Assembly: GCA_964016885.1 (NCBI GenBank)
Contig: OZ024742.1
Coordinates: 126,294,001 to 126,358,000, forward strand
Reading direction: 5' to 3'
Length of the DNA: 64,000 nucleotides
Origin: Eledone cirrhosa
Lineage: Eukaryota
How positions within the stretch are numbered: position 1 is the stretch's first letter; each line of letters begins with the position of its first letter. Below, piece after piece: positions 6,239 through 22,254 of this stretch. A model generated the notes under the pieces. The model was not told the DNA's origin, did no database searches, and saw nothing but the letters and a program-made list of their open reading frames with translations. Both the position numbers and the translations under genes were made by a program.

Positions 6239-7873
6239 TTAAATAGCTAAAATGTTTTTTGTACCATGATGTAATTGCTTCAATTTCAGCATGCAGTCTC
6301 AAATCTAATCACTTGCCAAACTAGTACAACTTTAAAGTGCATGTGTGTATGATTAAACTCTTCACATATTAAGCATCCTTGTTTGTAAATTCAACCAAGC
6401 TTTTAGAATATGTAAACCATATGCCTTTGTGTCGTACGAGGCAATTGAAGAGGATAGCATCTTCTTCTTTGCCCACATATTTTTTTGGAAGGTTTTGGAG
6501 GCAGACTCCTCAAGCACTGTCCAGTGAGTCCTGTCAAAAGCAACTATCTCCAATTGATACAGCTAGATCCCCAAGTGAGACAATTCAAGCTCATGGATGT
6601 TATCCAATCATCTTGCTCAGCGTCTACTCCTGGATCTTCTGCCAGATGGTTTTGTTCACAAAATACAGCTTCAAATATCCAATTCCAACCTATGCCAAGG
6701 ATGATGATGACGATGATGATGATGATGCTGATGTTGATGATGACATCGATAATGGTGATGATGATAATAATGACATTGATGATGATGTATCCATATATAT
6801 ATTGTTTTTGTTTATTTTCTGCTACTTAAATATAAAAGTGTTTATGACACCATTATGTAAAAAATCTGATATAAGTTTGTCATATACAAGTAAACAAGAT
6901 GAGTAAACTACATGACCTAATAATTGTACAAAACCTTATAACATGATAAATATATGCTTGTATATATAATGTATATATGTATAATACATATCTATGTATG
7001 AATATATATATTTGTGAGTGCATGTGTCTATGTGTGTATGCGTGCGTGTAATATGATGGTCATAATTTTTACGTCTCATTTTCCATACTTGTAAGGTTTA
7101 AACAAATCCACTCTAGTGCAACATCCCTCCACTTGTCTCTTTCATTTATCATCTCCTTTTTAAGGTTCAATATTTTGACATCCAGTCTTACCCACTTCTG
7201 CCCAAGTCTTCCTTGGTTCTCCTCTTCCACAGATTCCTTCTACTTGTAAATTCTGGTACTTCTTCACTCTATGATCAACATTTATAAATCTTATATTTCT
7301 CTAGGACACTATATTGAGCAATGAATACTTGCAGTCACAACTAACCAGTTAGGACTCTGTAGTAAAAAACAACAACAAAAACTAACTAAAATACTTCCCC
7401 CACACAGTACAAGGGTGCATATCTCCCCACATCCACACCTCATTTTCTCTTTACTTCAGCACTAAAACAAATATCTCAGCCTCTGTGAAGGAAGAGGAGG
7501 AGGAAATCCCATTTGGTTATGGATAACCAAGGGTTTGAACCTAGAAAGTTCCTCTCCATGCCACTGATGTTGTCCAAGGGAATAGAAAAGGCTTATAGAG
7601 TGTGGCACCAGTGACATCACAACTCATTTTTTCTAGCTGAGTTGACAGGAGTAATGTGAAATAAAGTGTCTTACTCAAGAACACAACATTCCACACAGTC
7701 TGAGAATCAAACTCACAACATCACAATAGTGAGCCCAACACTTTAGCCACTAAATCATGCAGCTTCACTCATAAAGATGTTACACAAAAGGAAAATTTCT
7801 CCATCTAATAATTAAGCAAGTAAGTAGGTAAGAATCAAAGGACATTGTTTGATATAGAAGATAAAAGGAAAAT

Positions 7874-8067
7874 TGTGATGATATGATTTGTTTTATAGCA
7901 TCACTTTCTTCTCTTTGATTTGATTCCTTTTTATTCTTATTCGTTGTATTCGTTCTGTTCTTGTTTGTTGTATTGTTAACCCATGCTAATTTCTTCTCTT
8001 ATTGACTCTTTCTATATTATTCTTAGATTGAATAAAAACCTTTGATTTGGTACAAAATAATACAACA
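7874..8067 (+). repeat. Gypsy 5' LTR
   Basis: TG...CA termini. AATAAA at 8031. Matches 11938-12131. Confidence 0.93.
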
Positions 8068-8080
8068 ATTTTATTCAATC

Positions 8081-8760
8081 ATGGATCCGAAAATATTCAA
8101 GAAAATTCTCCCGGATGATCCTAGTGAATCCAATTATGCCTACTGGAAGAGAATGTTGGCGATCTATTTGGAAAACTTGTCTGTTCCTGACGAAAGTAAG
8201 CTGTCAGTCCTTCTGGTTCTTTGTGGAACCAATGCTTATACTCTCATTGAAGAAGCAACATCATTCGATGAGGCGTTATCCATTCTTGATAATAAATTTC
8301 AAAAGAAAGGCTCAGCAATAATGACCCGACATAAACTACGCAACCATCGTCAACAAGAAGGGCAATCATTGGAGGCCTACATGACTGAATTAAAGCCCTC
8401 GCAAAGAAATGCCCCACTAAACCCCTAACAGGGGAACAACATAGACAATTGTTGATTTGTGATGCGTTCGTGTCGGGTGTTTTATCCGCCACCATAAAAC
8501 AACGACTTCTGGAATCACCTGACGAAAATCTAGATAAAATATTCCAAACCGCTCTCACATTAGAACTGGCAATAGAAGAAACACAAAATCTGTTAACAAC
8601 AACAATACAACCGCCGTCACAACCCGTATTCGCTGCTTCTTCATCAAAATGTTTCTAGTGTGGTGGTTCATATCACCAAAAATCAGAATGCCCTGCAAAA
8701 AATTCAACTTGCAATTTCTGCCACAAGAAAGGCCACTGGGCAACAGTATGTTTTGTTAAA
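8081..8760 (+). pseudogene. Gypsy gag (frameshifted) with two Cys/His knuckles
   Basis: ATG at 8081 (MDPKIF...YWKRML...RQQEGQSLEAYMTELK). After the frameshift and a stop: C..CGGSYH...CPAKNSTCNFCHKKGHWATVC. Confidence 0.85.
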
Positions 8761-8902
8761 AATAAGAAGGTACTAAAGAAGATAAAACACGGAGCAGTCT
8801 TGAATAATAACGAGGGCCCCGATGAAGCCTATGATGGCAGTAATCTTGCTGCCTGTTATAAACTTGCTTCCGGAAATCATAATACAAATCTTTTAACAAT
8901 TT

Positions 8903-11900
8903 ATGTCAAATCACATAAAACTTGACACAGGCTCAGACAAGTCTTTCATTGACATGAACCTCTTGTCAAAATGGCAAAGTAAATTCAAGAAAACTAAGAA
9001 TAAGAGTGTAATTTTAGCCAACAACAGTAAACTCATAATACGAGGTACGTTTGAAACATCATTAGAATGGGAGGGCCGAGCATACCACATCGATCTAATG
9101 GTGGTTGACAAACTCATTGCTCCAGTAGTTATGGGTCTTGATATACTTAAAAGGCATAAGTCTTTAACAATAAAATATGCGGGGGACATGAGACCAGTCA
9201 CGATATGTATGTCAATGCAAACTCTGAAGTGTGAAGAATATGATTTAATGCCTGGTATTGATACTACAAAATTAAAACCATTATCTATACCTCCTCGAAA
9301 ATACAATAAAGATCAGCAATTCATTAAAACGGAAATCAACAGAATGCTTAAAGCTGGAATAATTCAACAGAGCAGAAGCCTATGGAGAGCGCAGTGCTTC
9401 GTAATAGATCAAGAAAACAAAAAACGTCTTGTCATAGACTACTCAGGCACTATAAATCGTTACACACCATTAGATTCATACCCTAATGCCATAATCGAAG
9501 ACCTACTCAACAAAATTTCAAAACACACGTATTTCTCGAAAATAGATCTAAAAGCAGCTTATCACCAAATACCCATCAAATCTTCTGACTTTAAGTTGAC
9601 TGCATTCGAGGCCTGTGGCCGACTATACAAATTTACCCGTCTTCCGTTTGGATGCACAAATGCCGTTCCAATTTTCCAACGAATAATGGACACTTTCATA
9701 GACAATTACAACTTACAAAATACCTACTCATACCTTGATGACATTATTATAGGACGGGATTGGCAGTATCGGTAGAGGGTCGGACGCCATGCTTTCCAGC
9801 ATAGTTACGTCCCTTTACGATCTGAGTTCAAATCCCGCCGAGGTTGACTTTGCCTTTCATCCTTACGGGGTCGATAAAATAAAGTACCAGCAATGCACTG
9901 GGTAATTGCTGGCCTTGTGCCTAAAGTAGAAACAATTATTATAGGACGAGGTTAACTTTGCCTTTCATCCTTACGGGGTCGATAAAGTAAAGTACCAGTA
10001 ATGCACTGGATAATTGCTGGCTTTGTGCCAAAAAAAGTAGAAACAATTATTATAGGAGGAGACAGTCGAAGAACATAACCATAACCTAAAGCAATTCATG
10101 AATGCAGCTAACAATGCAGGTATGCAATTGAATCAAGACAAATGCAGCTTTAATCAAAATAGAATACATTTCCTTGGACATGTCATAGAAAAAAGTGAAT
10201 TAAGACCGGACCCTGAAAGGTATAAAGCCCTTACTGACATGCCGTTCCCAAAGACATTAAAAGAGTTGAACCAGGTAATCGGTCTTTTTGCATACTATGC
10301 TAAATGGATTAAGAGCTCTTCTAACCTCTCAGTCGTTCTTACAAAGGCAAGAAACACCATTGATAAACAAGGTCTATCAAACGAAGAAAAATCTACTATT
10401 AATAAGATGAAGGAAGAACTCATAAAGGCATCACTGTGTTCACCCGATTTCACTGCACCATTTATAATCAAAACCGACGCATCACATATTGCCATTGGCG
10501 GAACTCTATCACAAAATGGTCGTCCAATTGCATTTCTTAGTAGAACCCTAAATAAGTCAGAAAAAGGACATTCCATCATCGAAAAGGAAGCTTGCGCAAT
10601 TATAGAAAAGTTGTAGAAAATGGAGGCATATGATCAGCGCTGTTCCACATTGTAATATCACAACAGACCAACGATCGGTTGCATTTGCGTTCAACAAAAA
10701 ACACACTTCCAAGATTAAAAACGAGAAGGTAGCCCGCTGGCGACTGGAGCTAAGCGATCTTAACCTTACCTTCTCATATAGACCTGGTTCATTAAACCAA
10801 GCCGCAGATGCACTATCGCGCTTCTGCTCTACTAAGATGGAATACGAATTATACAATATTCACTCACATCTATGTCATCCGGGGGTCACCAGCTTCTACA
10901 TTATTGTAAATCAATGAACTTGGCATATCCTATTAATGAAAGAAGAGAAGTCATCGCCAATTGTAAAATATGCCGTGAATGTAAACCACAATTCTATAAA
11001 CCACTCAAAGGAAGATTAATACATGCCACAAGAACCTGGGAAAGACTATCAATGGACTTTGTGGGTCCCATGGCTATCTCAAACGGTTTTCGATTTATGT
11101 TAACTATAGTTGACGGGTACTCACGTTTTCCATTCGCCATTCCCGGACATAGTAATTAAACATCTATTGGAGATATTCTCCATATTTGGAAAACCCAGTT
11201 CGATTCATACAGATATGGAGTAATAACATGTAAAAAGCCACACCACGCCATATCGACCCCAAGCCAACGGCCAATGCGAAAGAGTTAACGGCACAATATG
11301 CAAAGCGATAAGTCTGGCATTGAAGACAAATAATCTCAATAAAAATGGAGTAACATGATTCCAATCGCTCTGTCGTCTATCCGAGGATTGCTTTGCGCTG
11401 CTACAAACGCCACACCACATGAAAGAGTATTTTCATTCACCAGATCGACAAACAATGGCACAGAAATACCAGAGTTGCTAAATAAACCGGGCACAACCGT
11501 GCTACATCGACGTCACATAAGGAATAAAGGCGATGATCTCACGGAAAACGTTCAACTCATTGAGACGATCTCATCTCACTTTGCCAAGGTACAATTTAAT
11601 AGTGGAAGAATAGAGACAGTCTCAACCACAAATCTCGCACCAGAAGCATCACCACAAAACAATGGAAATTCAACAACATCGGAGTGTCAGAATAATAACT
11701 CCCCAAAAGGCGCCAATTTAACTCAATCAACAGCAATATCTACACCTGTGGTCATTGGGAACGAAAGTATGACATCTACCGCCGATAACAATCCTACAGA
11801 GAGTGCTGAATTCGACGACGATGAATCTTCTGACACATTCTTAACCTTGAATAACACACCCCAACAACAAAGAACACACCGAGGATGCTTAGTAGTGAGG

Positions 11901-11921
11901 CCAATGCGATACAACAATTAA
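8903..11921 (+). pseudogene. Gypsy pol (protease, RT, RNase H, integrase), disrupted
   Basis: LDTGS, SLWRAQ, RLVIDY, KIDLKAAYHQI, LPFG, YLDD (9731-9742), KTDAS and EKEA, HLCHPG..CKIC, SMDFVG, LLCAATNATPHER. Confidence 0.93.
9755..10045 (+). mobile_element. Two tandem copies (one full, one 5'-truncated) of a tRNA-derived SINE inside the Gypsy RT
   Basis: B-box-like GAGTTCAAATCC, core GCCTTTCATCCTTACGGGGTCGATAAAATAAAGTACCAG (resembles the Meta-SINE domain, from memory) and tail AGAAACAATTATT. Target ATTATTATAGGA appears three times. Confidence 0.88.
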
Positions 11922-11937
11922 CGCTAGAGGGAAAGAA

Positions 11938-12131
11938 TATGATGATATGATTTGTTTTATAGCATCACTTTCCTCTCTTTGATTTGATTCCTTTTTATTA
12001 TTATTCGTTGTATTCGTTCTGTTCTTGTTTGTTGTATTGTTAACCCATGCTAATTTCTTCTCTTATTGACTCTTTCTATATTATTCTTAGATTGAATAAA
12101 AACCTTTGATTTGGTACAAAATAATACAAAA
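11938..12131 (+). repeat. Gypsy 3' LTR
   Basis: Matches the 5' LTR, but the termini read TA...AA instead of TG...CA. Confidence 0.92.
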
Positions 12132-12319
12132 AAAATAATTAGGAGGGAAGAAAGTAAATGCTATGACATGTGATCTTTAGTTGTTTCAGTCAACAATCTC
12201 CATTATTATTAACTCTTAACATTCTGTATCACATGAAAACCACATTATAAGAATATTCTTGAAAAGTACAAAACATCACTATAACTGCATGACATTAAAA
12301 TTTGAAGTCTGAAGTCTGT

Positions 12320-12776: not shown

Positions 12777-14838
12777 TATAACAAAATACTGGTGTGTATG
12801 AATATAACAAAAGTCTCAGTTGTGTATATAACGTTTAATTAACAATTTGCCATTATGTAGAATAGTATAGTTGACAAGTCAATGAAAGTAGATGAAAGAA
12901 TGAAGTAAAGTTATTTGTTACCGTTTTGAAGTTATCTCGCAAGAGACCATGTTAGGGTTGCCAGTCGAACGCGCCTGGCCGAAGGGCCAGGCAGGTTAGA
13001 AGGCCAGGAGCCGAAAGGCAAATGAGAGGTAGAGATCGCTCTGAGTATCCCTTTTATAGTCTCAAGATGGAAGTGACAAAAAGGGTTCTGCCACCCCAAC
13101 GGGAAGTAACTCCAGCTACTTCCTGTCTAGAGAGCGTTAATCTATTGGTGATACGAGTGTCACAACAAGGGAGGCAACTCTTGCTACATTATCCCCTGCC
13201 AGATTTTTAAAACATAAAAATCGAATGAAACATGTATGGAGTAAGATGGCGAGCATGTAACAGGCATGAAAATTACGAAAAAAATAATGTTTGTAATAAA
13301 AGGAAAACAGCAAAATATATGCATGCAAAAATCAATAATAGATATCAAGGTAGCCAACCGCTCTTGGCCAGAGAACTATCTATCCATCACTCAAAGATAC
13401 AATGTAATCAAAGTAAAAGAAGAGGTCAAAGTTCAAATGTTCAAAATACAGTTCACATGTGTGCAATCACATGACAGCAGGAAAGAAAGTGTGTTCCAGA
13501 GAATGAATGCAGGTGGTTTCTGGTCTGTGGTATAACGTGAAATTGCCAACCTCCGAAGGGATTTTCTCACAGGAAGAGTGCTGCAAAAATAAATTCTCTG
13601 GCTTGTTCTGCTGGTTTTAGTTGTTGATGAGGCTGTGTTGTTGTTGTCTCGCGGAGTGAGCGTATTCGATGTTTAAATTCACAGTAAAAATTTTCCCAGA
13701 AAAAACGAGTTGCGCAAAGTGCTAGAAATAACAGCCACAGTTGATGGTCGATGTTGAGAATGTGTTGACCTGGAAGGGTCAAGAGGCCAGCGACCAAAAA
13801 AATAAGCATTCTGAATAAATGCGCAGTTTTCAACGGCAAATTTACGAGGTAAATTTTTAAACCGGCAAATATGAGAATATAGCTTAAGGCTGGAGAATCC
13901 TTGGCAAGAAACATTATCTATGGCGTGTGTTATCTCAGTGAGTCAAGATGTGTGCTCCCCACACGTGCCGAAACAAGGTTAAAGTCAAGTTGAAAAAAAA
14001 ATATTTCTATTGCGCGAGAAAATGGCGCGAAAATGATAGTGCAACAGGTCGTTGGCAGCCATTTTGAAAAATGTGTGTGTGAACGTGACAATATGATGAA
14101 AAAGAAAGAAAGGCTTCACTTAGTATAACAAATATGGCGAGTTCAATTTTTTTGTGAATGATGAAAAAAAAAAAACTTGGAAAGAATAAGCAATAGTTGA
14201 GATTCAGCAAAAATAAATGTTCATGTTGAAAAAGAGTCTGTCTGAACAGAATTTCACATGTGCGTGTGTTCGTTTCTGTGTCTGCGAATTTTTCCTAGTT
14301 TGTTAATAAAGTTTGCTGCGTATTCGAAATGTTGGTCGAAAAATTCCAACGAAAATGGGGTACTGCTAATTAATTTTCTTTTTTCCACACTCACACAACA
14401 CCAGATTCTGTTCGGGGTCACCACTTATATTCATACAATCCAGTAATTTGTTATAACAAAAGTCTCAGTTGTGTATATAATGTTTAATTAACAATTTGCA
14501 GTTATGTAGAATAGTATAGTTGACAAGTCAATGAAAGTAGATGAAAGAATGAAGTAAAGTTATTTGTTACCGTTTTGAAGTTAGCTCGCAAGAGACCATG
14601 TTAGGGTTGCCAGTGGACGCGCCTGGCCGAAGGGCCAGGCAGGTTAGAAGGCCAGGAGCCGAAAGGCAAATGAGAGGTAGAGATCGCTCTGAGTATTCCT
14701 TTTATAGGGTCTCAAGACGGAAGTGACAAATAGGGTTCTACCACCCCAACGGGAAGTAACTCCAGCTACTTCCTGTCTAAAGAGCGTTAATCTATTGGTG
14801 ATGCAAGTGTCACAACAAGGGAGGCAACTCTTGCTACA
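12777..14838 (-). mobile_element. Non-autonomous LTR retroelement (~412-bp LTRs, no recognisable coding region)
   Basis: LTRs 12777-13188 and 14426-14838. 4-bp TSD CATC (12773-12776, 14839-14842). Minus-strand PBS TGGTGACCCCGA (14423-14412) is complementary to the tRNA-Trp 3' end. Purine tract GGCAGGGGA lies next to the left LTR. Confidence 0.9.
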
Positions 14839-20320: not shown

Positions 20321-21339
20321 CACACCTTGCACCAAGTGGGTTTTGGCTTGTGTGCTCAGCAAGCCTTTTCAAGGGTACAGGAATTTTTGTTGGGTGTGTA
20401 AAACTAGCTGACATGACAATCCTGTGGTCAAAATGGTGGTAAAATGGGATGAGAGAGAAGATGGGGGAGGAATGAGGAAAAGGTGGGGGGGGGGCAAAGA
20501 ATGGTAACTGTATCTAAACAGCCTATGGGTCAGGGGAAGGATATGTGGGGGGGGGGGTATGAGGGGGTAGTAGGTATGGGTGGAGTATGAGGAAAAGAGG
20601 TGTAATGGTCATAGGAATAGAGGTTGGAGGAGGTGAGGGTACAACTTTAGACAGGATGTAGAAGTTAAAGGAATATTTCTAAGAAAATATAAAATGGGTT
20701 ATATAGAAGTAAATTAGTAAATAGGGAAATGAATCAGTAAGTAAACTGGTGAATAGGAATAGGATAAAATAAAATAAAGTAAAGTAAAATTTATAGGGTT
20801 TAAAAATAGATAATTGAGAAATATAGGAGAATAACTTATGGTAAAGTGTGTATATTATGTATCGGTAGAGAGTCGGACAAAATGCTTTGCAGTATTTAGT
20901 TATGGCCCTTTACATTCTGAGTTTAAATCCCACCGAAGCTCACTTTACCTTTCATCCTTACAGGGCCGATAAAATAAAGTACCAGTAATGTACTGGGGTC
21001 AATTTAATTGACTTTACCCTTCTCTAAAATTGCTGGTCTTGTCACTTAACCAGAAATCATTATGTATGCATACTACATGAACACAAGCACACACAAGTAT
21101 AAGGAGTTTTAAAAGTATTTATCTTTCATCAGGGTTCAGTTCTCAGACCTCTGTTGCTCATGATAGTTCTTCAAGAATCAAACATAAGTTTAAGTCTAGT
21201 TGTGTATGTGAACTTCTCTATGCAGCTGATTTGGTCCTTATAGTTGAATCCATAAAAGAACTAGAGTACAAGTTCTGACAACTGAAACAGAATTTGGAAT
21301 CAAAATGTAAAACCTAAAGTGCTAGTATATGTATGCGCG

Positions 21340-21919: not shown

Positions 21920-22248
21920 TATTCAGAATAATAATAAATGAAGACATTCACATAATTAAAATATATGTTTTATTATATATATTTCGAAGGTACTGTGCTG
22001 TTTTTTCAGTATGTCCTCGTCAGATAAAATACATGAATTGATGTATGACATACCTCAACTGTCTTGATAGTTCAATTCCAGTATTGGCAATACTGGAATT
22101 GAACTATCAAGACAGTTGAGGTATGTCATACATCAATTCATGTATTTTATCTGACGAGGACATACTGAAAAAACAGCACAGTACCTTCGAAATATATATA
22201 ATAAAACATATATTTTAATTATGTGAATGTCTTCATTTATTATTATTC

Positions 22249-22254
<6 letters not shown>
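21920..22254. repeat. Palindrome with 167-bp arms and 1-nt spacer (centre 22087), between (TA)n tracts
   Basis: Arms read as reverse complements by eye (...TTCCAGTATTG G CAATACTGGAA...). Confidence 0.93.
22145..22206 (+). ncRNA. Minimal type-I hammerhead ribozyme motif (mirror copy on - strand at 21968-22029)
   Basis: ttttat-CTGACGA-[gga..tactg..cagta..ttc]-GAAA-tatata-TA-ataaaa. Intact core, 6-bp stem I, palindromic stem III. Confidence 0.75.

Follow-up and report, generated by a model that had tools for sequence, protein, structure and literature searches.

Complementarity between the primer-binding site and the LTR points to self-primed reverse transcription in an animal Gypsy lineage

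Introduction

How does an LTR retrotransposon start reverse transcription when the letters at its primer-binding site match its own LTR? The question is raised by a 4.26-kb element in the window (the whole 64,000-nt stretch of the Eledone cirrhosa assembly analysed here), a decayed member of a compact lineage of Gypsy elements. A sequence-only reading had described it as lacking the tRNA-type TGG site, with LTR-complementary letters in that place and the gag ATG at 8081, and all three points stand. Self-priming has so far been regarded as a mark of the Tf1/sushi chromoviruses, with additional predictions in two plant groups. From the comparative evidence below, we consider it probable that this Gypsy lineage, in which no chromodomain was detected, primes reverse transcription from the 5′ end of its own RNA, in the manner of Tf1.

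Results and Discussion

Architecture of the element

LTRs, TSD and polypurine tract of a Ty3/Gypsy LTR retrotransposon are all present, and the order gag-PR-RT-RH-IN is found with Pfam in the window pieces taken together with the single ORF of a sister family. The features, all on the forward strand, are as follows.

7869–7873 (+): 5′ TSD, AAAAT, the same letters as 12132–12136
7874–8067 (+): 5′ LTR, 194 nt, TG..CA, with a T-rich U3; contig loose ends at both borders
8026–8037 (+): predicted self-primer, candidate first 12 (up to 13–14) nt of the genomic RNA; exact complement of 8069–8080, with the register kept in 23 families and with breakpoints of broken copies
8031–8036 (+): AATAAA poly(A) signal within the predicted primer, from the sequence
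8038–8051 (+): weak 3-bp stem (ACC/GGT) from the first base after the duplex onward, by RNAfold; predicted cut at 8037/8038
8068 (+): one-base spacer (A8068) between LTR end and primer site
8069–8080 (+): primer-binding site without TGG, complementary to the element's own LTR
8081–11921 (+): broken gag-PR-RT-RH-IN region, no chromodomain detected, from ORF pieces and Pfam
9754–10057 (+): SINE-like interspersed repeat of the host, internally duplicated, that sits in RT directly after the YLDD motif, with a 12-nt flanking duplication; copies in at least 8 other places in the window
11926–11937 (+): polypurine tract adjoining the 3′ LTR
11938–12131 (+): 3′ LTR, in which the primer segment and its AATAAA recur, unpaired, at 12090–12101
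12132–12136 (+): 3′ TSD, AAAAT

The two LTRs differ at 4 of 194 positions, two of them in the termini. The ATG at 8081, directly after the primer site, opens a gag-like frame with a weak Pfam match (Retrotrans_gag/PNMA). The coding region is disrupted by frameshifts, stops and the host repeat in RT, with the first break near 8390–8430; an RNase H domain is present in the lineage (Pfam). Contig loose ends at 7872–7874 and 8066–8068 match the LTR ends (two runs of one sample; contigs cannot show the RNA start).

The SINE-like repeat at 9754–10057 is abundant in the host, with further copies at 20859, 29556, 34224, 37524, 39100, 46655, 50282 and 59313. Its 3′ part of about 105 nt is tandemly repeated, and several related loci are broken up or bordered by it. 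The minus strand carries another LTR element, a short one, at 12802–14838; it has direct repeats of about 387 nt (12802–13188 and 14451–14838; 96% identical) separated by about 1.26 kb, and carries a tRNA-type primer site, TGGTGACCCC, near 14405–14422. It has no ORF of at least 150 aa and is, therefore, probably non-autonomous. At 21920–22254 there is a perfect inverted repeat with two 167-nt arms 1 nt apart, the product of a fold-back that happened very recently or else an error of assembly. No tRNA genes were found in the 64-kb window, and the sole Rfam match over 7800–8250 was below threshold and due to chance.

Pairing in the window copy and its own family

The segment TTTTATTCAATC at 8069–8080 is the exact reverse complement of GATTGAATAAAA at 8026–8037 in the 5′ LTR, at precisely the coordinates that the sequence-only reading had given. 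The duplex stops at 12 bp, and the neighbouring base on either side is unpaired. When the match was required to start 0–5 nt after the LTR, a mononucleotide-shuffled LTR reached 12 nt once in 20,000 trials; with dinucleotide shuffling and a looser search region of 45 nt, the window match was reached in 5 of 300. The folding z-score is −3.6 for a 58-nt segment trimmed to the hairpin and −1.3 in a context of 95–121 nt. The copy of the primer segment in the 3′ LTR does not form this fold. Taken alone, the single window copy is suggestive, in that its pairing is unlikely to have arisen by chance, though not overwhelmingly so, and it is the relatives that carry the case.

Searched at the DNA level, the 3.0-Gb host assembly gave 44 matches, 30 of which were examined. 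The perfect 12-bp match is kept in 15 of the 18 copies that span the LTR into gag, and the other three carry one-sided changes; the 18 copies show no compensatory changes. Since the pairing is kept in 15 of 18, it belongs to the family and not just to the window copy.

Related and control families in the host genome

An RT search of the host genome gave 150 scored matches, 20 of which were examined. They include a sister family (family B), whose RT is 55–58% identical to that of the window copy and whose LTR measures 171 nt. Its duplex has an 11-nt core in common with the window family and is extended to 13 nt by other letters, which are still paired. Among the family B copies with both LTRs, 13–15 nt are paired in five of seven; the other two pair over 9–10 nt because of a single change. 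A third, decayed family was seen at L041 (G000:C5:104462300-104471800), with an RT 51% identical to the window copy, a 12-nt primer/PBS pair identical to the window's and a different loop.

Gypsy families of the tRNA type in the same genome served as controls; we take them to be CsRN1-like elements that use tRNA-Trp. All five control loci have TGG sites (TGGTGACCC), with RTs 35–38% identical to that of the window copy. Their sites match their LTRs over only 6–7 nt, which is chance level (reached by 140–290 of 300 shuffles). At G000:C3:346967387-347036868, a tRNA-type Gypsy family forms a tandem element array, with about 14 RT matches spaced 5.3 kb apart.

Relatives in other genomes

A protein search returned 856 homologues at E ≤ 1e-40. 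Among the 120 homologues listed, 13 rows carry a species name, and all are animals (nematode, isopod, insects, spider, ray and catshark), given as proteins with no DNA context. An alignment of 57 proteins was used as the query against metagenomes, and 80 of 514 confirmed loci were examined. Anchoring on the gag start made 38 of the 80 testable; another 38 had no match to the gag N-terminus and four had too little upstream DNA. A blind scan detected an inverted repeat of 10–17 nt before gag in 30 of the 38 testable loci (rows that are not independent), and no match of at least 10 nt in the other eight. Control stretches from pol reached 10 nt in 1 of 31. Five of 22 apparent metagenome LTR pairs proved to be contig-end overlaps or cut LTRs and scored 4–7 nt; anchored on gag, all five give 13–16 nt. 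Two scans of viral contigs found no relative.

We chose 23 family representatives by hand, 3 from the host (including the window family) and 20 from metagenomes, with RTs 42–58% identical to the window copy. The sequence right after the LTR pairs with the family's own LTR over 11–17 nt in all 23 (in two with one mismatch allowed), so that the arrangement used elsewhere to predict self-priming, at least 10 nt of LTR complementarity starting 0–5 nt after the LTR, is found. Relative to the CA that ends the LTR, pairing starts at +1 nt in 18 families and at +2 nt in three. The duplexes comprise 21 different 11-mers, and when a family's LTR segment is set against the site of another family, a mean of 6.4 of 11 positions pair. 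Own-pair counts are high by construction, because the duplexes were located as the longest inverted repeat; the independent part of the family evidence is the position of the duplex at the LTR end, together with the controls.

Closely related loci also change both sides of the duplex at once. A G-C pair is replaced by T-A between L058 and L066 (RT 99% identical), and a C-G pair by T-A between L062 and L064 (RT 94% identical). The check proposed by the sequence-only reading, whether relatives with a SPWRAQ-type RT keep the complementarity, has thus come out in its favour: they keep it in different letters and with compensatory changes, and a TGG primer site is present in none of the 23 families.

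No chromodomain was detected in 13 proteins of the lineage at E ≤ 0.05, nor in the precomputed Pfam lists of the 120 homologues listed. A search of the host genome for the chromovirus-type SH3 domain gave no signal in either the lineage or the controls and is, hence, uninformative. The pairing in 23 families, their lack of TGG and the 13 proteins together support the earlier proposal of self-priming in an animal Gypsy lineage with no obvious chromodomain.

A model for self-priming

Transcription of the window element would start at about 8025–8026, and the first 12 nt of the RNA would fold onto 8069–8080 across a 31-nt loop. Cleavage after 8037 (carried out by RNase H in Tf1) would leave a 3′-OH facing the LTR, from which reverse transcriptase would copy 31 nt, made up of the spacer, U5 and what remains of R, before jumping to the 3′ R. 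The plus-strand strong-stop DNA would then copy the still-attached primer, so that the primer site would be rewritten from the LTR. Such rewriting would explain the one-step compensatory changes, the pairing beyond the 11-nt core and the LTR-type letters found at the junctions of broken copies.

Junctions of broken copies

In family B, the primer site is followed by GA in the internal sequence, while continued complementarity to the LTR would read CTAG. Among its exact junctions genome-wide, 19 read the internal G and six differ; all six read C, the LTR complement. These six include one duplicated event (two junctions), and two copies (L038 and L182) were added that the junction pattern had missed through a single change. 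The resulting seven independent events extend the site by C, CT, CT, CT, CTA, CTA and CTAG before passing into foreign DNA, with the LTR-type letter in the first position in 7/7 and in the first two positions in 6/7. One insertion (L031) contains both junction forms, internal and LTR-type. Listed beside this junction evidence are seven matches that end exactly at query base 184. Two further family B matches, which apparently continued beyond the LTR (to query 177 and 191), turned out to be LTR plus chance flank.

These junctions are likely the footprint of plus-strand strong-stop DNA copied from an LTR-derived primer of 14–17 nt, left where the second strand transfer failed. The same letters could be written by fold-back of the plus-strand DNA on its own LTR, but a fold-back would not be expected to stop after 1–4 bases.

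The window family gives a less specific picture, and the junction and truncation lists are lower bounds (40 candidates scored). Five loci break 0–2 nt from the duplex end, with an LTR-type letter in one (L023), internal-type A or AT in three and neither type in one. Breakpoints of this kind (12–14 nt copied, 8024–8026) would fit a 12-nt primer from 8026 and are non-discriminating. Nine of ten 5′-truncated copies begin at query 164–199 and none at 67–163, which is merely consistent with the predicted cut at 164/165. Of 44 junctions in a tRNA-primed control family, 2 deviate at base 19, both departing from the family sequence directly after the 18-nt site, a weak comparison for which a single position was queried.

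Copies rearranged at the 5′ end are common (L031, L038, L153, L155/156, L158, L182, L023, L028, L030). They show a full LTR and primer site, then a few hundred bp of foreign DNA, after which the internal sequence starts again, in some cases with segments inverted. This form makes up about a quarter of the family B junctions. The second strand transfer may frequently fail given such a short A/T-rich primer site. A tRNA-primed copy, L196, matches one family in its LTR end and primer site and resembles the leader of another downstream; from its sequence, this is likely a template switch at the shared primer site.

Position of the RNA start

An A lies at −11 from the duplex end in 18 of the 23 families, and the adjacent G at −10 in 16. 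This A is in register with the 11-nt Tf1 primer, as given in the accessible part of its description (PMC7175516), and the AG letters resemble the initiator TCAKTY, as given in the accessible part of PMC3601003. A fixed start of the Tf1 type predicts that pairing should end there, but in 22 of the 23 it goes 1–6 nt further upstream than the 11-nt core, extending to 17 nt in L068 and to 18 of the first 19 nt in L055. Pairing beyond 11 nt in so many families suggests that starts are probably spread across a few bases upstream.

The same overhang could be read as a sign that the primer is the 3′ LTR copy, at the U3-R end of the same or a partner RNA, and not the 5′ end. In many families, L068 and L055 among them, pairing runs several bases upstream of the AG/initiator-like motif into U3, and the 3′ end of the RNA does include U3. 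We regard this source of the primer as improbable. If the primer carried a long tail of U3, plus-strand copying could go far into U3, while the broken copies end after 14–17 nt, and a cut at that place would remove the 3′ R that strand transfer requires.

The poly(A) signal and the gag start

In 14 of the 23 families, an AATAAA or ATTAAA lies at the end of the duplex, a near variant is found in six more, and three have nothing signal-like in the duplex; in L062, AATAAA lies outside it, 27 nt downstream in the loop. The duplex is followed immediately by a 4-bp stem in 13 of 23 families, where 6.2 would be expected; the window copy, with 3 bp, is not among the 13. In most families an ATG starts within 12–26 nt of the primer-site start, and in family B the first Met of the long ORF is farther downstream.

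These features bear on the alternative raised by the sequence-only reading, that the hairpin hides the poly(A) signal in the 5′ LTR only. A stricter version has the hairpin do nothing else, with priming left to a host RNA such as a tRNA fragment or another small RNA. The hexamers at the duplex end in 14 families, with the six near variants, speak for it, as does the different folding of the 3′ LTR copy. It would, however, demand as many host primers as there are different 11-mers, namely 21, none of which begins with TGG; the three families without a signal-like hexamer in the duplex and the loop position in L062 have no place in it, and the junction letters match the LTR. We therefore consider masking with a host primer very unlikely. 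Masking survives as a possible second role, given the signal in the duplex of 14 families, but it cannot replace priming, because three families lack the signal, one has it outside the duplex, and a primer would still be required. A speculative combination is that the duplex over the 5′ AATAAA, ending at the gag AUG, doubles as a poly(A) mask and as a switch between translation and replication.

Least probable of all is that the pairing has no role in priming, having arisen as a side effect when DNA folded back or the template was switched, or as an A/T-rich coincidence. The duplex is A/T-rich, its z-score falls to only −1.3 in the longer context, and fold-back could write the junction letters. 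The position of the pairing, however, is fixed at the LTR end across RT divergence down to 42% identity; it is absent from tRNA-primed families of the same genome, and no alternative candidate primer site is seen. A primer formed across a splice junction was ruled out, as the paired letters run on without a gap in the unspliced LTR, the AG among them.

Implications

Should self-priming from the RNA 5′ end hold for a chromodomain-less lineage with nematode, arthropod and cartilaginous fish relatives, tRNA-independent priming would have been invented repeatedly and would be common in animals. tRNA fragments could not block such elements via the primer site, and PBS-based annotation would rate them as incomplete. 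The junctions of broken copies offer a handle on primer length that needs only sequence. To a wider proposal we would give an even chance: that self-priming arose independently in a large Gypsy clade of animals that is not related to Tf1/sushi and whose leader of 55–100 nt folds RNA start, primer, poly(A) signal, primer site and gag start together. Its primer site would be rewritten in each cycle, and failed integrations would record the 5′ end of the primer, so that the starts of extinct elements could be read from DNA.

Comparison with known systems

Cigr-1 of Ciona is about 4.2 kb long, with short LTRs and one ORF of about 1,200 aa. The window lineage is similar in size and also has short LTRs and a single ORF, and we assume that it may belong to the Cigr clade. 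Cigr is listed among the clades of annelids in PMC8556966, the accessible part of which does not mention its primer. For two other clade names, 'Selfy' and 'Smaug', no relevant literature was found.

An RT tree with 42 rows splits at 100/100 into the lineage, with 39 rows of which 10 are named animal proteins, and three tRNA-type rows. The tree holds no chromovirus and no outgroup beyond the tRNA-type rows, and placement among the Gypsy clades is outside its scope. The RT-RH of the window lineage reaches 164 bits with Ty3 and 154 with a caulimovirus enzyme, compared with 276 and 149 for a tRNA-primed control, a difference that a long branch could also produce.

In titles, abstract openings and accessible parts of the literature, self-priming is linked to Tf1/sushi, Tcn1 and TAR (PMC7175516, PMC6317226, PMC4600332, PMC5006619, PMC6934838, PMC3601003, PMC5443660, PMC8556966, PMC10965091, PMC7472051, PMC5408684, PMC13383693, bioRxiv 2022.12.06.519325). 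At the level of titles and abstract openings, no self-priming animal Gypsy element other than a chromovirus was found; Repbase Reports, GyDB, subscription journals and supplements, which are outside this scope, may already note one. The chromovirus Skipper of Dictyostelium is a Gypsy element without TGG, pyrimidine-rich after the LTR and with no complementary LTR region reported in the accessible part of PMC5006619. It shares the missing TGG with the window element.

Self-priming has already been predicted outside Tf1/sushi, for Tcn1 (Gypsy) and for TAR/Houba/Osr-1 (Copia) of plants, from at least 10 nt of LTR complementarity beginning 0–5 nt after the 5′ LTR (accessible part of PMC6317226). 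The window element shows the same arrangement, but Tcn1 is a chromovirus and TAR a Copia element, and both belong to other lineages and hosts.

The closest parallels are Tf1/Tf2 of Schizosaccharomyces pombe, Tj1 and the other Tf1/sushi chromoviruses, which also have a primer site complementary to a segment of the LTR and the Ty3/Gypsy gene order. In Tf1, the first 11 nt pair and RNase H cuts between 11 and 12 (accessible part of PMC7175516). A chromodomain is present in all fission-yeast elements, according to the accessible part of bioRxiv 2022.12.06.519325. Tf1 forms a 'pretzel' of three duplexes, while in the window lineage, where the local region alone was examined, a weak local stem is seen. 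Unlike in Tf1, the poly(A) signal of the window lineage often lies within the predicted primer, and the gag AUG adjoins the duplex.
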